The notes under the pieces were generated by a model. It was not told where the DNA came from and ran no database searches. It saw only the letters and a program-made list of their open reading frames with translations. From a virus (taxonomy: Duplodnaviria > Heunggongvirae > Uroviricota > Caudoviricetes): a stretch of DNA of 6,515 nt. Shown one piece after another: positions 1-6,515 of this stretch; the stretch's first letter is position 1, and each line of letters opens with the position of its first letter. A program made the position numbers and the translations under genes. The stretch lies in the IMG/VR virus record IMGVR_UViG_2698536571_000010; one strand, given 5' to 3'.

Positions 1-98
1 GGGGAATATCTCCCCGGCAGCCTTCAGGGAAAAATATCATCAGATGGCTGCTTAAAAAAAGAACAAATGGTAGTGTCCGCTATTGCCAGTACACCTCA
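1..98. repeat. Left arm of a perfect 98-bp terminal inverted repeat (partner at 6418..6515)
   Basis: Positions 1-98 are the exact reverse complement of 6418-6515; identity breaks at position 99 versus 6417. The arm contains an ATG at 67-69 in a frame that is open from position 1. Confidence 0.9.
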
Positions 99-282
99 GG
101 ATAGCGGTCATGTGATGCCGGTTTCCCGGTAACTCAGCACCGGTATCTGAGTCAACGTTTTCTCTACTGGGTCATTTCCGATACGCCCTGCCTGCTGACA
201 GGCTTTCATCACATCTGAAAATATAGCACCCTGACTGATACTGTAGTACCTAAGGTTCCAGAAACTGTGATGTATCCGGCAC

Positions 283-305
283 AGAAAAGCCCCTCCGGAG
301 AGGGC
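283..305 (-). terminator. Possible weak intrinsic terminator (minus strand)
   Basis: Minus-strand hairpin CCCTC/GAGGG (5-bp stem, 4-nt loop; plus 291-304) followed by TTTTCT (plus 283-288). Stem is short. Confidence 0.3.
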
Positions 306-502
306 TGGAGAGTGGCGCTATGTGCCATTGCATGATGCCGGGTGCCTCCCGGTGAATTCAGTACCAGCACCTGAATCCGCGATTATCCCATATACCTACT
401 CGCTGATTGCCCCTCCGCACAGGGGGATTCACCATGCCAGTTTCTTTTAACAAACTCCCCGCAAAACAGACAACTGTCAACCGTCTGAATTGTGAGACAT
501 TT

Positions 503-528
503 AAAAAAAAGGCCCGCAAAAGCGAGCC
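503..528 (-). terminator. Intrinsic terminator just downstream of the tRNA cluster
   Basis: Minus-strand hairpin GGCTCGC-TTTT-GCGGGCC (7-bp stem with one G-U pair; plus 511-528) followed directly by T8 (plus 503-510), 15 nt after the tRNA-Arg 3' end. Confidence 0.6.
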
Positions 529-542
529 AGGGAAAATAAGTG

Positions 543-619
543 TGGCGCGTTGTACTGGATTCGAACCAGTGACCGATTGCTTAGAAGGCAATTGCTCTGT
601 CCGGCTGAGCTAACAACGC
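543..619 (-). tRNA. tRNA-Arg, anticodon UCU (reads AGA/AGG)
   Basis: 77-nt cloverleaf folded by hand: acceptor GCGTTGT/ACAACGC, D stem GCTC/GAGC, anticodon stem ATTGC/GCAAT with loop CTTCTAA, T arm ACTGG-TTCGAAT-CCAGT, discriminator G, encoded CCA. Confidence 0.88.
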
Positions 620-632
620 ATGATGCAGATAA

Positions 633-709
633 TGGACCGCCATCGGGGACTTGAACCCCGCGCAGCCAGCTTCGAAGGCTGGCGCTCTTTCCTGATGAGC
701 TAATGGCGG
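633..709 (-). tRNA. tRNA-Arg, anticodon UCG (reads CGA/CGG)
   Basis: 77-nt cloverleaf: acceptor CCGCCAT/ATGGCGG, D stem GCTC/GAGC, anticodon stem CCAGC/GCTGG with loop CTTCGAA, T arm CGGGG-TTCAAGT-CCCCG, encoded CCA. Confidence 0.8.
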
Positions 710-716
710 TATGTGA

Positions 717-792
717 TGGTGGCCCTTGCTGGATTTGAACCAGCGACCTGGCGATTATGAGTCGCTCGCTCTCACCACTGAGCTAAAGGGCC
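717..792 (-). tRNA. tRNA-Ile2-like, anticodon CAU (lysidine type; could formally be Met)
   Basis: 76-nt cloverleaf: acceptor GGCCCTT/AAGGGCC, anticodon loop CTCATAA, T arm GCTGG-TTCAAAT-CCAGC, encoded CCA. Closely resembles E. coli ileX as I recall it. The Ile(CAU)-Arg-Arg order matches the ileZ-argN-argO cluster of Stx-type lambdoid phages. Confidence 0.8.
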
Positions 793-801
793 GGGAGCCG
801 C

Positions 802-830
802 ATAATAACGACGCGTAATTAATTCTTCAA
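802..830 (-). promoter_or_regulatory. Candidate sigma70 promoter for the tRNA cluster
   Basis: Minus strand has -35 TTGAAG (plus 825-830), 17-nt spacer, -10 TATTAT (plus 802-807), placing the start a few nt upstream of the tRNA-Ile 5' end at 792. Motif match only. Confidence 0.3.
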
Positions 831-832
831 TA

Positions 833-1891
833 TCATCCGTTCTGGCTGACTAAATCCTGTACTTCCCGAACCGTCTGCTCAAAACGTTCAGTCTCCAGCT
901 CAACGCCAATTGCACGACGCCCGAGCGCCAGTGCCGCTTTCACTGTCGAACCCAACCCCATGAAAAAATCTGCAATCAGGTCACCCGGACGACTGCTAGC
1001 GCTGATTATCTGCTGCAGCATTTCTGCCGGTTTTTCGCACGGATGTTTCCCGGGATAGAACTGCACCGGTTTATGCGTCCACACATCGGTATACGGCACC
1101 TGCACCGTCACGCCAAAATACCGCCGCAGATGTTTATATTCACTCAGCAGCTCCGCATACTGCCGGTTCAGTGAGGTATACGTATCCACCAGCTGGTGGT
1201 GGAGCTTTTCCAGTTCACCACGCCGATGCTTCTCTTCTGCCACCCGGGCAAACAGCGCCTGTAATTTCAGATAATCGCTTTCATTCGGCAACTGCCACTG
1301 ACCGGCACTGAACCAGTGCGACACCATGTTTTTCTTTCCTGTGGCATCTGCAATCTGTTTTGCCGTTATCCCCAGGGCAGCTCGCGCATCACGAAAGTAA
1401 GAAATCAGCGGGGCCATCACATGCTGTTTCAGTGCACTGCCCTTCGCCGCATACCCGGCATCTTTCGGACGATACGGCCCCTGATAATGTTCCGCGAACA
1501 GAATGCGCTCTGTGGCGGGGAAATACGCCCGCAGGCTTTCCTTGTTGCATCCGTTCCAGCGTCCGGACGGCTTCGCCCAGATAATATGGTTCAGCACACT
1601 GAAGCGTTCACGCATCATGATTTCGATATCAGATGCCAGGCGATGACCACAGAACAGGTAAAGACTTCCGGCAGGTTTCAGCACCCGCCAGAACTGCGCC
1701 AGACACTGGTCCAGCCACTTCAGGTAATCATCGTCGCCCTTCCACTGGTTATCCCAGCCCTCAGGCTTCACTTTAAAGTACGGCGGGTCCGTGACTATCA
1801 GGTCAACAGAATTTTCGGGTAACGACCGGATAAATTCCAGGCAGTCGGCGTTGATTAACTCACAACTGGATATTTTTACAGTATTAAGCAT
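833..1891 (-). CDS. Orphan DNA amino-methyltransferase (N6-adenine or N4-cytosine), beta-class
   Basis: 352-aa ORF with N-terminal catalytic motif IV (LIVTDPPY) and C-terminal AdoMet motif I (DFFMGLGST), the permuted order typical of beta-class amino-MTases. No restriction endonuclease partner is in the window. Confidence 0.85.
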   Translation of the reverse strand: MLNTVKISSCELINADCLEFIRSLPENSVDLIVTDPPYFKVKPEGWDNQWKGDDDYLKWLDQCLAQFWRVLKPAGSLYLFCGHRLASDIEIMMRERFSVLNHIIWAKPSGRWNGCNKESLRAYFPATERILFAEHYQGPYRPKDAGYAAKGSALKQHVMAPLISYFRDARAALGITAKQIADATGKKNMVSHWFSAGQWQLPNESDYLKLQALFARVAEEKHRRGELEKLHHQLVDTYTSLNRQYAELLSEYKHLRRYFGVTVQVPYTDVWTHKPVQFYPGKHPCEKPAEMLQQIISASSRPGDLIADFFMGLGSTVKAALALGRRAIGVELETERFEQTVREVQDLVSQNG

Positions 1892-1983
1892 GGATCATTA
1901 AGCCTGTCTCTGATAGGCTCATTCTGCTTTTGCGCAAAGCAGTGGGCCTGAGGTTTGCTTGTGAACCCAACGCATGAGCAGAT

Positions 1984-2014
1984 GGCTGGTGGGTGCCCCT
2001 AACACCCACCAGCC
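1984..2014. other. Perfect palindrome: 12-bp arms, 7-nt spacer
   Basis: GGCTGGTGGGTG (1984-1995), spacer cccctaa, CACCCACCAGCC (2003-2014); arms are exact reverse complements. Not followed by a T-tract on either strand. Lies between the small HTH gene and the methyltransferase gene. Confidence 0.5.
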
Positions 2015-2027
2015 GCCCATTTACCAC

Positions 2028-2055
2028 AAATAAAAAAGCCTTCACTGCGGAAGGC
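2028..2055 (-). terminator. Intrinsic terminator after the 65-aa HTH ORF
   Basis: Minus-strand hairpin GCCTTC-cgcagt-GAAGGC (6-bp stem; plus 2038-2055) followed by TTTTTTATTT (plus 2028-2037). The ORF stop codon lies inside the stem. Confidence 0.65.
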
Positions 2056-2239
2056 GTCTGTAACAACCGAACTGATAGTCTGCCAGACCCGCCATAACCA
2101 GCTGGGTCAGTATTAACTGGCAGCGTTCGCGTGAAAGGTAAGTATTCTGCGCTATCTCCCCGACTGTCGCCGGTTCGGTAACGCTTAATTCATTAAACAC
2201 CACTCTGGCGGTTTCTGTCATATCCTGCTGTTTTAGCAT
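2042..2239 (-). CDS. Small (65 aa) predicted helix-turn-helix DNA-binding protein
   Basis: ATG at 2239 preceded by AAGGA at a 6-nt spacing. The segment TVGEIAQNTYLSRERCQLILTQL looks like an HTH. Family not recognised. Confidence 0.5.
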   Translation of the reverse strand: MLKQQDMTETARVVFNELSVTEPATVGEIAQNTYLSRERCQLILTQLVMAGLADYQFGCYRRLPQ

Positions 2240-2359
2240 GTCTTTTCCTTTTCCGGTTAACGTGACACACCAATAACTCTTGTCGAAAAAGCCAGCAAGC
2301 TGAAAGACAGGTATTCACCGCCACCAGCGCGTTTACTGTACTGACGCGATTTCAGTCAT

Positions 2360-2381
2360 AAAAAACCCGCTCGGCGGCGGG
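2360..2381 (-). terminator. tR'-like intrinsic terminator downstream of the Q gene
   Basis: Minus-strand hairpin CCCGC-cgccga-GCGGG (plus 2366-2381) followed by TTTTTT (plus 2360-2365), about 45-60 nt downstream of the predicted promoter. Confidence 0.55.
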
Positions 2382-2430
2382 TTGTAGAAACTCTTCTAAC
2401 GTCAGGCATAAAACGCCCATCGTTATGACG

Positions 2431-2458
2431 AATTTACCACAGATTCCGGAAAAATCAA
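2431..2458 (-). promoter_or_regulatory. pR'-like late promoter with extended -10 (probable qut region)
   Basis: Minus strand has -35 TTGATT (plus 2453-2458), 16-nt spacer, TGG-TAAATT extended -10 (plus 2431-2439), starting 6 nt after the Q stop codon at 2464. Position immediately downstream of Q matches lambdoid pR'/qut organisation. Confidence 0.4.
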
Positions 2459-2463
2459 CCTTG

Positions 2464-3285
2464 TTACCTAGTTACCTTTTTTAACTGCCGCTCAGCCCAT
2501 GCTTCTTCAATATCAAACCGGGTCACCAGCGCATCATAAAATTTCTTAACTGTTTTTTCCCATGACGCGCGTGTTATCTGGTTTGTCACCTCGCATATAG
2601 CATTAAATGCCTCCGTTGATGGTAGTCTTTCATAGCCACGACCACCACAACGCTGGCAGTCTCTGATAACAGGCATACCACGTTTTACCGACTCTTCACG
2701 ATGAATGGCGACACCACGCCCACGGCAATCCTTACAGGCGGTGGAAACCTCACCCTTTCCGCCACACTCCGGACAGGCAACTTTTACCACCTCCCTGACT
2801 TTTTTCCATTCTTCCCAGTAAGACGGATACACACCTTTCGTACACTTTGCCCATACCGGCGGCTTACCATCCGGATACTGGATCTTGTTTGTAAAAACCT
2901 CGCTTTCAATAAATTTTTTTCCGTGACAGCAGGGGCACTGTTTTTTGCTCGCCGCGCTACGGGCATAATCTTCAAACGCATACGAAGCCATAATACGCAT
3001 CACTGCCGGTTTTATTTCTGCCGGGAGTTTTCTTAACGCCGCCACGCGATCACACCGACTGAGTGCATATTCTGTCAGCAATTCTGTTGCCCGCTCTCTG
3101 TCATTCATACTAATGCCCATTTTCCCAAGGAACGCAGAAACCCCCATCTCAGCCCGATTCTGTGTCATGCCCTGCGCGGCCATCACATCAGTGATACTCA
3201 GCGCATCTTTCGACGTTGAGGCCGATGCATCAGTCAGGCCGGGGGATTTTGGGGAGTAGTATTTCGGTAAATCTTCCAGTTTCAT
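2464..3285 (-). CDS. Late-gene antiterminator Q-like protein (zinc-finger type)
   Basis: 273-aa ORF with repeated CxxC zinc-binding motifs (CPCCHGKK, CPECGGKG, CKDCRGRG, CQRCGGRG). Its ATG overlaps the rusA stop (ATGA), and it is followed by a promoter plus terminator. Family assignment is from memory of quuQ/YdfT-type Q proteins, not a search. Confidence 0.6.
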   Translation of the reverse strand: MKLEDLPKYYSPKSPGLTDASASTSKDALSITDVMAAQGMTQNRAEMGVSAFLGKMGISMNDRERATELLTEYALSRCDRVAALRKLPAEIKPAVMRIMASYAFEDYARSAASKKQCPCCHGKKFIESEVFTNKIQYPDGKPPVWAKCTKGVYPSYWEEWKKVREVVKVACPECGGKGEVSTACKDCRGRGVAIHREESVKRGMPVIRDCQRCGGRGYERLPSTEAFNAICEVTNQITRASWEKTVKKFYDALVTRFDIEEAWAERQLKKVTR

Positions 3286-3563
3286 TTTTTGACCTGCCCT
3301 TCAAGCATTATGGGATAAATCTTCACCCCCAGACGTCCACCAGATACTGGCTGAGCACGAACGATATTGATTTCATCAAACTGCTCATCGTCCATTAGCA
3401 ACCCCGCATGCGTCAGCGCATCCAGCGGCGCTTTCAGAATATTGTCCAGGTCACGGCGGCGCTTATCCGGTGGTTCTGCAATAATTTTTATTGCCAACCT
3501 TCCGGACAGGCTTAATTTCAGCCGCTGCTGGCGAACAATAAGCGCCACTGCCCGGCGATAACG
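3282..3563 (-). CDS. rusA: RusA Holliday-junction resolvase (partial; 5' end lost in the N-run)
   Basis: The frame reads ...PPDKRRRDLDNILKAPLDALTHAGLLMDDEQFDEI...GGRLGVKI, matching the RusA catalytic core (PDRRRRDLDN...DALTKAGFWLDDAQ...GGRLELTI). It stays open up to the gap edge at 3563. Confidence 0.8.
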   Translation of the reverse strand, partial: RYRRAVALIVRQQRLKLSLSGRLAIKIIAEPPDKRRRDLDNILKAPLDALTHAGLLMDDEQFDEINIVRAQPVSGGRLGVKIYPIMLEGQVKK

Positions 3564-3770
3564 NNNNNNNNNNNNNNNNNNNNNNNNNNNNNNNNNNNNN
3601 NNNNNNNNNNNNNNNNNNNNNNNNNNNNNNNNNNNNNNNNNNNNNNNNNNNNNNNNNNNNNNNNNNNNNNNNNNNNNNNNNNNNNNNNNNNNNNNNNNNN
3701 NNNNNNNNNNNNNNNNNNNNNNNNNNNNNNNNNNNNNNNNNNNNNNNNNNNNNNNNNNNNNNNNNNNNNN
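3564..3770. other. 207-nt run of N (assembly gap or masked sequence)
   Basis: Continuous n from 3564 to 3770. It removes the 3' end of the DUF968-like gene and the 5' end of rusA. Confidence 0.95.
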
Positions 3771-4675
3771 TCAGCCTTTGTTCCCATCCCTCCCAGTCCA
3801 TGACCAATGATGTGATGCGGATCATCTGCCTGATTGCCACACGTCATGCATTTCTGCGTTTTTACCCAGCGCGTGTATACAGGCATCTCTTCCCGTTGTG
3901 ATTTCTGGCGCTGGAGATACTGAGCCGGTGACTCCGGATCAACGGCAATGCTGACCACCGTCTTTTCCTGTGGTGGGTTCTGTTGCTGGTGGACGTGAGG
4001 CAGTAACGCAATATTTTTTGTGCGCTGCTTCAGTATGCTGGTGGCTGTCTGCTCTCCCGGTATGATGTCGCTTTCACTGTACACAGAGCGAATTTTTTCC
4101 GCACGCAACCCCAGCGAACGACGTAATACCGCTTCCGGTAGCGCGTCCGCCACCTGATTGCGGACCGCCCACCAGGATAATTCAGCCAGAGATAATTCAC
4201 GCTCCTGCGTACCGCTTATTGCGTGACCGATGACGTCAATCATCCATGCTGACAGGTTTTGATGAGCAAGTTGCTCGAGTGATTCGGATGTCTGGTCACG
4301 CAGCTGGTTGTCGCAGTGCCAGCACAACACCATTGCGCCGGTACCATAACGGTGAATGACGGTTTCGCTGTGATGATAATCGCCGTGTGGCCACTGGCAG
4401 GATTTAATATGGCGCAACAGCCAGTCAGACAATGCACCAGCACCACCAGCAGCACGAATCACCCGTGCGTTACTGAAAAACGGCAGCAATGTTTTGTCTT
4501 CCACCAGCGGCTGGCGAGCGGCAGGAACGACCCCGGACGGCAGATTACGCATGCTTTTTGGTTCCGGCTCCACCAGTATTCTGCCGTTATGGAATGCTGA
4601 CATTGATTCACGGCCTGGCTTAACGATAACCAGACCGAGTTCCGGTACCAGAACAGGTCGAAGTAATACCCGCAC
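3771..4675 (-). CDS. DUF968/YdfU-like protein with HNH-like Cys/His motif (partial; 3' end in the N-run)
   Basis: Long minus-strand frame from a GTG at 4675 (GGAGG just upstream; an ATG at 4603 is the alternative start) running into the gap. Ends with CMTCGNQADDPHHIIGHGLGG just before the gap. Position upstream of rusA and Q mirrors ydfU next to quuQ in the Qin prophage. Confidence 0.5.
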
Positions 4676-4750
4676 ATTACCTCCAGATCCGTTGCTGGAA
4701 TGTGCGGGACGGACGCGTTGGCCGTTCGGAGTAAGGGAGCCTGACGGAGA

Positions 4751-5032
4751 TTATCCAGTGACGGTAGTCGAGGCTAAGGGCTTTTTTAACCTCGCATCCG
4801 CGCCTGCGGTAACACTGAATGAGCCATTCGGCCTGTTCTTCAGTGCATGGGGGATGCTGGTACCAATCAGATTTAAATGCGTGAGAGCGCCGCCCGTGCC
4901 TGCTGGCAAAGACGGCTGAATTATCAGAATTGTGTAGTCTGGAAGGCAGTGGCTGACAATAGCGCCATTCTCAACGCGCACAGTATAGAGGCCATCTTCA
5001 CTAAAAATTTCACGTAATTCTTCGATTTTCAT
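4751..5032 (-). CDS. Hypothetical small protein (93 aa) in the rem-like position
   Basis: ATG at 5032 preceded by GGAAGGA at about 8-10 nt. The N-terminal 40 aa look protein-like; the C-terminal half is G/P/T/S-rich and low-complexity, so the 3' part may be non-coding or frameshifted. Confidence 0.35.
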   Translation of the reverse strand: MKIEELREIFSEDGLYTVRVENGAIVSHCLPDYTILIIQPSLPAGTGGALTHLNLIGTSIPHALKNRPNGSFSVTAGADARLKKPLASTTVTG

Positions 5033-5114
5033 CAACAGAATCCTTCCAGATAAATAGCACTCCCCTGTTCGGGGTCCATCCCTCTTCTCCCTGCGCGCTA
5101 CTTAAGTATTTTTG

Positions 5115-5144
5115 ATTCTATTCCGGCACCATCTAAAACTTCAA
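5115..5144 (-). promoter_or_regulatory. Candidate sigma70 promoter upstream of the 93-aa ORF and DUF968 genes
   Basis: Minus strand has -35 TTGAAG (plus 5139-5144), 18-nt spacer, -10 TAGAAT (plus 5115-5120). Motif match only. Confidence 0.25.
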
Positions 5145-5152
5145 ACGCGTTG

Positions 5153-5182
5153 AAAATAAAAACAAAAACCCGCCGAAGCGGG
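5153..5182 (-). terminator. Intrinsic terminator at the 3' end of the hok mRNA
   Basis: Minus-strand hairpin CCCGC-ttcg-GCGGG (plus 5169-5182) followed by TTTTTGTTTTTATTTT (plus 5153-5168). Confidence 0.7.
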
Positions 5183-5252
5183 TTAAGTGTGGGTGCATTG
5201 AGGATGCCTGACCCATCAGAGGTGGCGAGGGATTTCTCCCCCGCCTGGTCTC

Positions 5253-5408
5253 TTACTCCTCAGGTTCGTAAGCTGTGAAGACAGCGACCTCCGTCTGGCC
5301 GGTTCGAATTCGTACCTCGCAGAGGTCTTTCCTCGTTACCAGTGCCGTCACTATGACGGTTAAACAGATGACGATCAGGGCGATTAACATCGCCTTTTGC
5401 TGCTTCAT
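5253..5408 (-). CDS. hokD: Hok-family type I toxin (51 aa, membrane-active)
   Basis: Translation MKQQKAMLIALIVICLTVIVTALVTRKDLCEVRIRTGQTEVAVFTAYEPEE has the Hok/Gef signature (single TM helix then RKDLCEVRIR) and matches HokD (RelF) as I recall it. AAGGAG sits 9 nt upstream of the ATG at 5408. Confidence 0.88.
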   Translation of the reverse strand: MKQQKAMLIALIVICLTVIVTALVTRKDLCEVRIRTGQTEVAVFTAYEPEE

Positions 5409-5580
5409 AGCCTGCTTCTCCTTGCCTTTCGGCACGTAAGAGGCTAACCTAGATTTGCCGTTCATAGATTGAGCCTCAGATTAATGTTAAGCGTCTTGCC
5501 GGACGCGTAATGTTAACTGGGGCTTTTCTCTATCTGCCTTTTGGTGTTCATGCCTGAGACAGATAGCCTCAAGCACCCGC
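5409..5580 (-). promoter_or_regulatory. hok mRNA leader (tac-like 5' end, in-frame mok-like upstream start, sokT-like antisense target region)
   Basis: The leader is near-collinear with the plasmid R1 hok mRNA leader as I recall it: 5' GCGGGTGCTTGAGGCTATCTG..., then ...AGGTTAGCCTCTTACGTGCCGAAAGGCAAGGAGAAGCAGGCTATG. An upstream ATG at 5465 is in frame with hok. A 3' sequence CCTCAATGCACCC (plus 5191-5206) is complementary to the 5' end, consistent with an fbi-tac pairing. Confidence 0.6.
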
Positions 5581-5584
5581 TGCA

Positions 5585-5612
5585 ATTCTACTTAACTCTC
5601 CTTTTCCCGCAA
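5585..5612 (-). promoter_or_regulatory. Candidate hok promoter
   Basis: Minus strand has -35 TTGCGG (plus 5607-5612), 16-nt spacer, -10 TAGAAT (plus 5585-5590), placing the start at the GCGGGTGCTTGAGG tac-like 5' end. Confidence 0.4.
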
Positions 5613-5699
5613 ACCGTTTTTATCCCCAGCGGCAAATCGAATACACCACCAGCGCCACCGCCATCGCAATTCCTACCGTTGTTAATGCTTCAGGCCAGG

Positions 5700-6044
5700 T
5701 CATCGTAAAATATCCTCCACGCTTATCAGTCCGTTCCGCTCCAGATAACTCATCGCCTTATCCGGTAATTTGCAGTCTGGCTTCGCTTTCCTCAGTTGCC
5801 AGGTTAACTGCTTTACCAGCATGGTTAACTCATCGACCAGACGCTGATATCCCACTGGTTTGTATTCATGCAATTTACCGGCTGGCTCTGCTGCCAGCGA
5901 TACCAGTGCGATTTCCAGAACAGCAATATCCATCTTATATGTGCGGATGATGTCATGGTCGATTGTGCCCGGTATGCACAGTCTCTGTGCTTCAATAGTC
6001 TCCTCTGCGTGAGCTATTAACTGCTCTCTGGTAAAAGTCGTCAT
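5700..6044 (-). CDS. Hypothetical protein, 114 aa (third gene of the small-ORF cassette; paralogue of the 55-aa protein)
   Basis: Its ATG at 6044-6042 overlaps the upstream stop (ATGA), with AAGGGG 7 nt upstream. The N-terminus MTTFTREQ... and the motif [10 protein letters not shown] align with MTTITKER... and [10 protein letters not shown] in the 55-aa product. No family recognised. Confidence 0.6.
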
Positions 6045-6208
6045 GCCGTAGCCCCTTCTTGATATTTTTCAAACCAGAACACAACCGGCTCTGCTTCCAG
6101 CGATGCCAGCGCAATCCGTGCCAGTTCCATTTGTTCACCACGGGTAAGCCCGTTTTCAAGCGGGTTTTTAATGAACAATTCAATACGTTCTTTGGTAATA
6201 GTGGTCAT
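6041..6208 (-). CDS. Hypothetical protein, 55 aa (second gene of the cassette; absent from the supplied ORF track)
   Basis: Hand translation from the ATG at 6208: [55 protein letters not shown]. The SD TAAGGAG overlaps the upstream stop at a 6-nt spacing; its own stop overlaps the next ATG. Confidence 0.55.
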
Positions 6209-6218
6209 GTGTTACTCC

Positions 6219-6449
6219 TTAACCCGCAGTGCTTTCAACTGATGAGGGGAACAAAATCTTTTCATCAAACCCTGCATTCATATCATGAACAGCAACACAC
6301 CAATCCATCGACGAACGATTATCAAGAGCCTCCATGATTTCATCCATGCGGCGTAGGTCATACAGGTAAATGCTTTTATCGCCAATGGTGTAAAAGCCAA
6401 TTTTTTTCGGTGATGGATGAGGTGTACTGGCAATAGCGGACACTACCAT
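6219..6449 (-). CDS. Hypothetical protein, at least 76 aa (first gene of the cassette; start may lie beyond the window edge)
   Basis: ORF MVVSAIASTPHPSPKK...SSVESTAG. The ATG at 6449 lies inside the right inverted-repeat arm and has no SD. The frame stays open for 22 further sense codons to position 6515, so the true start may be outside the window. Confidence 0.5.
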   Translation of the reverse strand: MVVSAIASTPHPSPKKIGFYTIGDKSIYLYDLRRMDEIMEALDNRSSMDWCVAVHDMNAGFDEKILFPSSVESTAG

Positions 6450-6515
6450 TTGTTCTTTTTTTAAGCAGCCATCTGATGATATTTTTCCCTGAAGGCTGCC
6501 GGGGAGATATTCCCC

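Follow-up and report, generated by a model that had tools for sequence, protein, structure and literature searches.

The stretch of DNA analysed here (6,515 nucleotides, hereafter the window) begins and ends with the same 98 bp in inverted orientation, which raises the question of what this repeat is and why the sequence stops precisely at its outer edges. Our answer is that the window is very probably a Shigella sonnei short-read scaffold, in which a 6319-bp piece of prophage lies between two inverted, full-length copies of IS600 and the assembly broke inside both.

The inverted repeat at the window ends

Repeat finding over the 6515-base window gave two arms, 1-98 and 6418-6515, that are 100% complementary across 98 nt. 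Direct comparison of the window with its own reverse complement agreed, with exactly 98 bases matching and immediate divergence beyond them (positions 99-109 all differ), confirming the first-pass annotation of two exact reverse complements bounding the window. The number of perfect 98-nt inverted repeats expected by chance in 6.5 kb is (6515^2/2)/4^98, or about 2e-52. Moreover, the window is the complete source sequence (6515/6515 bases), and both of its ends coincide with the ends of the repeat.

Identity of the arms

The 98-mer matches 6104 places in 3433 E. coli records, annotated as 'IS3-like element IS600 family transposase'. In 2196 records the top match reaches 99% identity or more, and annotated IS600 copies match the arms at 100% across all 98 nt. 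At one such locus (L002) the 98-mer forms the final 98 nt of a 1264-bp element, whose frameshifted transposase CDS (1399-2555) stops 43 nt short of the IS end. The terminal repeats are imperfect and of the TG...CA type, with 19/27 positions matching between IRL (TGAGGTAGCCTGAGTTTAACGGACACT) and the reverse complement of IRR (TGAGGTGTACTGGCAATAGCGGACACT), and the terminal A of ...ACCTCA is window position 98. The orfA/orfB open frames are visible in the sequence and carry the RefSeq annotation of a 'programmed frameshift' CDS, whilst both 385-aa products flanking the segment match the Pfam families HTH_Tnp_1, HTH_21, rve, rve_3 and rve_2, that is, a DDE transposase.

Near-identity of sequence, TG/CA terminal repeats, a frameshifted orfA/orfB encoding a DDE transposase with rve domains, the full length of 1264 bp and, for copy B, a 3-bp target duplication were all found, and no evidence contradicting the IS600 identification was encountered. 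There is no difference in kind from IS600, although the window holds only the final 98 nt of each copy and copy A lacks a two-sided target duplication. Uninterrupted prophage relatives match the window from 98 to 6417 and then continue beyond both sides; therefore, neither arm is phage DNA. Judged by these identities, the 98-bp repeat is the 3'-terminal 98 nt of IS600 (IS3 family), comprising the IRR end and the last 17 transposase codons, and a phage feature is ruled out. The first-pass annotation had reasoned that, with no transposase present, this could not be a transposon terminal repeat. That reasoning is overturned, as the arms are the terminal inverted-repeat end of IS600, the transposase gene lies just beyond the window and positions 2-55 encode its C-terminus. 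The IS600 features are:

1..98, plus strand: last 98 nt of IS600 copy B (IRR end), assigned by identity to annotated IS600; the element extends to the left of the window (full copy at L003 16398-17661)
2..55, plus strand: last 17 codons and stop of the IS600 transposase (OrfB/OrfAB); the translation, GNISPAAFREKYHQMAA followed by a stop, is identical to the end of the orfB frame, and the position agrees with the CDS at L002 1399-2555
6418..6515, minus strand: last 98 nt of IS600 copy A (IRR end); the element extends beyond the right window end (full copy, L003 8769-10032)

Two inverted copies in complete chromosomes

Complete Shigella sonnei chromosomes are 100% identical to the window at every non-N base. 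On those encoding the fusion protein described below (L003, L005, L007, L008 and L010) the alignment is 100% over 1-3563 and 3771-6515, and two of these matching records, CP022457 and CP060117, are named S. sonnei. In L003 the arms extend to full 1264-bp IS600 copies at 8769-10032 (plus strand) and 16398-17661 (minus strand), which lie in opposite orientation with their IRR ends inward and share 99.76% identity over 1264 nt with the annotated IS600 of L002.

TCC stands on either side of copy B, forming a perfect 3-bp target duplication. The copy B junction in L003 reads ...GCTATCC, then IS600, then TCCTTCCAGG, and L004 and L009 carry the empty site with a single TCC (in L004, ...GCTATCCTTCCAGG). 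The sequences flanking copy B on its two sides align, with order and strand kept, to a single uninterrupted prophage. Copy B is a simple and more recent insertion, because its 3-bp duplication is perfect and two other S. sonnei genomes have the site empty. Copy A is present in both of those genomes.

The native site of copy A reads ...CGCTGTCC followed directly by ATCACC, and the displaced partner TCC is found inverted at L003 6543. Copy A is thus consistent with the 3-bp duplication rule, yet no longer shows the duplication directly. In L003 its native flank is found 2.2 kb away in inverted orientation, and in L011 its outer flank is entirely different. A copy without target duplication, an inverted native flank and one genome with another outer flank all resemble the IS-mediated rearrangement, through homologous IS recombination, that is known in Shigella (PMC7373316, PMC11708052). 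Here, however, it is DNA outside the window that is affected, and no rearrangement was seen of the 6.3 kb that separate the copies. The inner target duplications are:

99..101: GGA (TCC on the minus strand), inner copy of the copy B 3-bp target duplication, from the L003 junction compared with the L004 empty site
6415..6417: TCC on the minus strand, inner copy of the copy A 3-bp target duplication, whose partner is no longer adjacent

The GGA at both interior ends was considered as a meaningful match and rejected; it represents two independent target duplications read on one strand, which relative to each IS are TCC and GGA, and is treated as a coincidence.

A search of 5426 complete E. coli genomes for either junction returned 0 records covering at least 80% of the junction-spanning query. 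The insertions are confined to the Shigella lineage that the fusion-protein search recovered. A 36-mer spanning the left junction also gave no match in a collection of genome contigs, which may hold a single genome for each species.

The prophage segment between the copies

The first-pass annotation had described the segment as a late region. This does not hold, as the interior is a nin/Q (late-regulator) region with a tRNA cluster and the late structural genes are not there. The prophage is degraded, with a truncated integrase and the stretch between the integrase fragment and the DUF977 gene absent. The segment comprises:

99..6417, minus strand: degraded lambdoid prophage segment of 6319 bp (nin/Q region and tRNA cluster), collinear with uninterrupted E. 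coli prophages whose matches stop exactly at 98 and 6417
277..466, minus strand: STnc100 sRNA homologue (Rfam RF02076, 123.6 bits, gathering score 47)
543..792, minus strand: phage tRNA cluster with a CAT anticodon (Ile in a relative's annotation), Arg-TCG and Arg-TCT (ARAGORN, Rfam and the RefSeq annotation of L001)
833..1891, minus strand: DNA methyltransferase (N6_N4_Mtase; Pfam PF01555, E 7.9e-42)
2464..3285, minus strand: late-gene antiterminator Q (Pfam PF03589, E 1.6e-53)
3282..3563, minus strand: C-terminal part of a RusA Holliday-junction resolvase, with its start within the gap (PF05866 on L003 12834-13214; coordinates mapped and translated)
3564..3770, no strand: run of 207 N, a sized scaffold gap
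3771..4675, minus strand: N-terminal part of a DUF968/HNH-like protein, with its end within the gap (Pfam PF06147, E 2.6e-62, on the intact L003 copy)
5253..5578, minus strand: hok/sok type I toxin-antitoxin locus (Pfam HOK_GEF, E 3e-23; Rfam sok, 112.4 bits, 5403-5578)
5700..6208, minus strand: two small phage ORFs of 114 aa and 55 aa (from the ORF list), called in all related loci and with no Pfam match

The N run was rejected as a length-preserving mask, since 207 N stand against 253 real bases in each of ten S. sonnei loci (L003-L012). It replaces real sequence and the window is therefore a scaffold.

Chimeric ORFs created by the IS end

Each arm had also been described as carrying the same inward-reading gene start. 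The open frames and the left-hand stop are as described, but the shared start is devoid of biological meaning, the ATG lying 32 nt inside the IS end and the ORF at the right arm being chimeric. Reading outward from the IS, this ATG leads, at the right arm, into a truncated 87-aa phage gene and, at the left arm, into intergenic DNA and a stop. In translation, the ATG at 67-69 opens MVVSAIASTPQDSGHVMPVSR and ends at a stop at 130-132, whilst its mirror at 6447-6449 opens a 76-aa ORF (6449-6219). Aligned with the intact protein of L001, this ORF has identical residues 12-76, and MVVSAIASTPH replaces the first 22 native residues. What had been called a 76-aa cassette gene is thus an IS600/phage fusion, produced where copy A truncates an 87-aa phage gene. 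The two ORFs are:

67..132, plus strand: 21-codon chimeric ORF of 11 IS600-end codons followed by phage intergenic flank, a by-product of the outward-reading ATG
6219..6449, minus strand: chimeric 76-aa ORF, an IS-truncated pseudogene of 11 IS600-end codons and, by alignment, the last 65 codons of the native 87-aa phage gene

A sigma-70 consensus scan for an outward promoter, which might have lent the chimeric ORF some meaning, gave no site in either arm (5 sites in the whole window, against a shuffled expectation of 6.3), and no Shine-Dalgarno-like sequence was seen upstream of the ATG at 67.

Despite being an IS-truncated pseudogene, the fusion protein is listed in 795 blocks of a public gene-position index. 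The longest carrying contig is 2-5 kb in 274 of these blocks, 5-10 kb in 325 and more than 1 Mb in 83, a spread that would follow from short-read assemblies being routinely interrupted at both IS copies and at the internal gap.

Why the window ends where it does

As the window ends 98 nt into a multi-copy element, which in identical complete genomes runs on to its full 1264 bp, the length of the repeat and the window ends are products of assembly, and the underlying repeat is real. The technical explanation of the contig ends offered in the first-pass annotation therefore stands. The source is probably S. sonnei, given the 100% identity to chromosomes named as such.

IS600 belongs to a group of five IS that have expanded across all Shigella (PMC7373316) and averages ~45 copies per Shigella genome (PMC4539685). 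With tens of copies per genome, a de Bruijn assembler would collapse all of them into one repeat node, and the unique contig would then run into this IS600 node by a fixed overlap at both sides, yielding a perfect 98-bp terminal inverted repeat. In a node-centric assembler 98 nt would equal k-1 for k=99; the assembler k may have been 99, with which the arithmetic is consistent. Against this, the contig overlap in edge-centric graphs such as those of SPAdes would be k and not k-1.

Like other repeat-induced breaks of de Bruijn assemblies, the window terminates within a multi-copy element where there is no natural boundary, and by an equal length at both ends; for several hundred index blocks of the same locus, the longest carrying contig measures 2-10 kb. 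It differs in that both of its ends run into one and the same end of the repeat, which is only possible with true inverted copies bracketing the segment; behind the technical inverted repeat there is hence a real one.

Alternative explanations

Three other accounts of the repeat are each contradicted by the complete chromosomes. The 98-mer might be real in a single copy beside the segment, with the other arm a mis-join or chimera; the arm length does resemble a k-mer overlap, and an N gap marks the window as a scaffold. However, both junctions and both full IS600 copies occur in independent complete chromosomes 100% identical to the window, and by this comparison a pure assembly artefact, to which we attach almost no probability, is refuted for the lineage. 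Compound transposons such as Tn5 and Tn10 are bounded by inverted IS copies, and two inverted copies of one IS around a several-kb segment have the same layout, as if IS600 carried a 6.3-kb cargo. In contrast to those elements, the unit here is not surrounded by a target duplication, as its outer flanks (...AATTTT, ending in TTT, and TCCTTCC..., starting with TCC) share no 3-mer, and its outer ends would be IRL and IRL. An uninterrupted prophage has the interior and the flank beyond copy B in collinear order, so that the cargo is resident DNA and not a block moved to a foreign site, and the unit was not seen elsewhere. Moreover, L004 and L009 carry copy A with an empty copy B site, from which it follows that two separate events built the structure in place; a composite transposon is almost certainly not the explanation. 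The first-pass annotation had further proposed the footprint of an inversion between two different prophages sharing a duplicated gene start. Lambdoid prophages of E. coli and Shigella do share near-identical modules, and the window matches a median of 4 places per E. coli genome. Yet the repeat is IS600 and not a phage gene, and copy B is a clean insertion with a direct target duplication and an empty-site allele, both sides of which match a single uninterrupted prophage. The empty-site comparison refutes this proposal, and we give it practically no chance.

The remaining alternative accepts the IS600 pair as real and has it act as a flip-flop, in which the 6.3-kb Q/tRNA segment would be inverted appreciably often by RecA-dependent crossing-over of the 1264-bp arms, uncoupling Q from the downstream lysis genes. 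Two near-identical inverted repeats only 6.3 kb apart do exist, and to this extent the earlier suggestion of a recombination-prone inverted duplication is borne out. The different outer flank of copy A in L011 indicates that IS600 copies at the locus join rearrangements. In L003 the copies are fully identical, including a shared private SNP (551A), which could reflect gene conversion. Across ten genomes copy A mostly carries 126C/873C/980C and copy B mostly 873C alone, in an inconsistent pattern with IS indels in several assemblies, and L003 and L012 show the same three substitutions (551A/873C/980C) in both copies, in which polishing artefact and gene conversion are inseparable. SNP differences between IS copies in long-read assemblies may, however, be polishing artefacts, as indels occur in L012 and L007. 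Against flipping, all of the ~20 long contigs that carry both copies (place types L003, L005, L006, L007, L008, L010, L011 and L012 with their collapsed duplicates) have the segment in native orientation relative to the esterase/holin flank; at this level of assembly comparison no second orientation was found. A much longer true repeat, with 0 of ~20 long assemblies flipped, is also the outcome that the first-pass annotation had itself named as speaking against its reading. Moreover, the prophage is already degraded and a selectable switch function is not evident. For a programmed invertible segment of the Hin/Gin/Cin/Pin or fim type, no invertase or recombinase was found in the window, and the repeats are IS600 ends. 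We regard appreciable flipping as very unlikely. Slimmer still is the chance that the Q-antiterminator/tRNA/methylase module is a low-frequency, recombination-invertible cassette in S. sonnei populations, switching Q read-through into the esterase-holin-lysis genes on and off. Were it to flip, this would be invisible to short-read assemblies, and a minority isomer would be missed by the consensus long-read assemblies sampled.

Implications

Assembly breakage within a bracketing pair of IS600 copies remains our preferred reading. The 98-bp length and the apparent absence of a transposase are both products of the assembly break, and caution is needed whenever a perfect terminal inverted repeat of plausible k-1 length bounds a contig, for which IS ends should be tested first. 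The locus is a further example of IS600-driven prophage decay in Shigella sonnei, a biology that is already known and well documented.

The terminal inverted repeat

Positions 1-98 and 6418-6515 of the window were found by repeat search to be exact reverse complements, as the first-pass annotation had claimed, and a base by base comparison of the window with its own reverse complement gave exactly 98 matches followed by eleven consecutive mismatches. By calculation, ~2e-52 perfect inverted repeats of 98 nt would be expected by chance in 6.5 kb. The repeat does bound the window, which is the whole source sequence, and both arms do carry an ORF start: the ATG at 67-69 in the left arm opens a 21-codon frame with a stop at 130-132, and its mirror at 6447-6449 in the right arm opens a 76-aa ORF (6449-6219). 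This common ORF start is incidental.

The whole window was compared by megablast with 5426 complete E. coli genomes. Many lambdoid prophages matched, spanning 98-6417 and then stopping, with both arms left out. The prophage of E. coli E300010 is uninterrupted and runs on past both interior ends, into a SASA-family esterase and a holin past the tRNA cluster and into the remainder of a 264-nt gene and more nin-region genes past the opposite end. Because the prophage matches end at the arms and this prophage continues on both sides, the arms are not phage DNA.

The 98-mer alone occurs at 6104 places in 3433 E. coli records (at most 43 places per genome), where it is annotated as 'IS3-like element IS600 family transposase'. 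In L002, an E. coli locus with an annotated 1264-bp IS600, it is the final 98 nt of the element, whose frameshifted transposase CDS stops 43 nt short of the IS end. Translation of window 2-55 gives GNISPAAFREKYHQMAA and a stop, the C-terminal end of the orfB product. The terminal A of ...ACCTCA falls at position 98, and the IS600 ends form an imperfect TG...CA inverted repeat as expected, with 19/27 positions matching. By their identity to annotated IS600, the orfB C-terminus and the TG...CA ends, both arms are therefore the right terminal inverted-repeat end (IRR) of IS600.

Gene content of the interior

The interior genes lie on the minus strand. They are those of a lambdoid prophage's nin/Q regulatory region and not of its late structural region, so that the earlier description as a 'late-region segment' does not hold.

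Features of the window from its right end to its left, all minus strand
6449-6219, chimeric 76-aa ORF, first from the right end
After the chimeric ORF, a pair of small ORFs (55 and 114 aa)
sok at 5403-5578, hok/sok (Pfam HOK_GEF; Rfam sok 112.4 bits, well above the gathering score, paired with the hok toxin gene)
Between hok/sok and DUF968, small ORFs with function not assigned
Right of RusA, DUF968/HNH-like protein
Between the DUF968 protein and antiterminator Q, RusA
Left of RusA, antiterminator Q
Between antiterminator Q and the methyltransferase, 65-aa ORF
Between the 65-aa ORF and the tRNAs, N6/N4 DNA methyltransferase
Left of the methyltransferase, three tRNAs, with a CAT-anticodon tRNA at 717-792
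277-466, STnc100 sRNA homologue, just downstream of the tRNA cluster (Rfam 123.6 bits, well above the gathering score)

The CAT-anticodon tRNA is called 'Met' by ARAGORN and its E300010 homologue is tRNA-Ile in RefSeq; this gene probably specifies an Ile tRNA with a lysidine modification, like that in lambdoid phage clusters of the ileZ-argN-argO type. The 90-aa gene that gene callers put upstream of DUF968 would have CTG as its start codon in the window. Two S. sonnei loci (L004 and L009) have 250 additional bases at window 4944/4945, with a gene matching Pfam Rem (PF27490) within; this is a 250-bp deletion in the window's lineage.

The locus in complete Shigella sonnei chromosomes

The 76-aa protein, which is possible at this junction only, is listed in 795 blocks of a public gene-position index, complete chromosomes among them. 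Window 1-3563 and 3771-6515 align at 100% identity to five S. sonnei loci (L003, L005, L007, L008 and L010); among the records retrieved, two carry the name Shigella sonnei, CP022457, strain 2015C-3566 (PMC6456863), and CP060117, strain UKMCC1015 (bioRxiv 10.1101/2020.12.08.416974). Neither arm/interior junction was present in any complete E. coli genome searched. Both arms extend outward in these S. sonnei chromosomes to full 1264-bp IS600 copies.

IS600 copies flanking the interior in L003
8769-10032, plus strand, copy A, outward extension of the right arm
16398-17661, minus strand, copy B, outward extension of the left arm

The copies are mutually inverted with their IRR ends inward, and both encode an intact transposase product of 385 aa. 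The repeat is thus real as sequence and represents a true pair of inverted IS600 copies; pure mis-assembly is excluded by the complete genomes. In L003 the copies are identical across all 1264 nt, including a common 551A, whereas positions 126 and 980 distinguish them in L005, L006 and L008. The cause is either gene conversion from one inverted copy to the other or artefacts of repeat polishing in the assemblies.

Origin of the two copies

Copy B has TCC on either side, and L004 and L009 carry copy A with the copy-B site empty (...GCTATCCTTCCAGG, one TCC). Therefore, copy B is a simple, later insertion, located in the spacer that separates the tRNA cluster from the esterase gene. On both sides its flanks match the uninterrupted E. 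coli prophage in order and strand.

Copy A breaks an 87-aa phage gene, and the 76-aa ORF consists of MVVSAIASTPH from the IS end and residues identical to the final 65 of the native protein. A target duplication is absent at its current borders (TTT vs TCC; outer border at L003 8756-8768), in agreement with inter-copy recombination and adjacent deletions as known ways for IS3-family copies to lose their duplications (PMC11708052). Its native upstream flank (...CGCTGTCC, the second TCC) sits inverted at L003 6543-6829, ~2.2 kb away, joined in frame to a tyrosine integrase C-terminal fragment adjoining ompW to give a 128-aa chimeric ORF (region L003 6224-6830). The split TCC pair and inverted native flank therefore point to an older IS-associated inversion and deletion that reshaped the DNA outside the window, by a route only partly explained, as a second IS600 is absent from the displaced-flank breakpoint in L003. 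In L011 (CP045932) copy A has an entirely different flank on its outer, IRL side (8756-8768), with Dam- and resolvase-containing DNA in place of the DUF977 region, which indicates a larger rearrangement with its breakpoint at copy A. L005 and L008 likewise diverge farther upstream.

The two target sites, within window 85-112 and 6404-6431, are alike (TGATCGCTGTCC/ATC and TGACCGCTATCC/TTC) and similar also to CCGCTAT, a subterminal stretch of the IRR in IS600. TGACCGC is contained in a third site (L002 1321-1334). The resemblance may hint at an IS600 target preference, three sites being too few to judge.

Why the window ends inside IS600

IS600 belongs to the five IS that have expanded across all Shigella (PMC7373316), and a Shigella genome has ~45 copies of it on average (PMC4539685). 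A de Bruijn assembler would merge such copies into a single node, each unique unitig being cut off a fixed overlap length into it. A unitig between inverted copies would then acquire a perfect terminal inverted repeat as long as that overlap. Node-centric assemblers use an overlap of k-1, so 98 would correspond to k=99.

Three observations support such a technical cut. The cut lies within a transposase codon, 98 nt inside the 1264-nt element. The window has a 207-N run (3564-3770) at the DUF968/RusA boundary where 10/10 retrieved S. sonnei loci (L003-L012) have 253 real bases, encoding the DUF968 C-terminus and the RusA start. Lastly, the longest contig with the fusion protein is 2-5 kb in 274 index blocks, 5-10 kb in 325 and >1 Mb in 83, as expected from breaks at two IS copies and an internal gap. 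Because 207 N replace 253 real bases, the window is a scaffold; a length-preserving mask was rejected on the same mismatch, and the run is a size-estimated scaffold gap, probably placed at a module common to another prophage. The 98-bp repeat length and the window boundaries are therefore products of assembly.

Alternative explanations

Bracketed by 1264-bp inverted repeats, the 6.3-kb segment could physically flip by homologous recombination between the IS600 copies. However, all of ~20 contigs with both copies (L003, L005-L008, L010-L012 and collapsed duplicates) show the segment in its native orientation with respect to the esterase/holin flank. Inter-copy SNP patterns are inconsistent between assemblies, with indels in some copies, and thus give no usable signal on flipping. 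The empty copy-B site excludes the footprint of an inversion between two prophages, as had been proposed, and so does the collinear order shared with the uninterrupted prophage. A composite transposon is likewise excluded, the unit being without a flanking duplication and the copy-B site being empty in L004 and L009. The degradation of a cryptic S. sonnei prophage by IS600 insertions is well-known biology.
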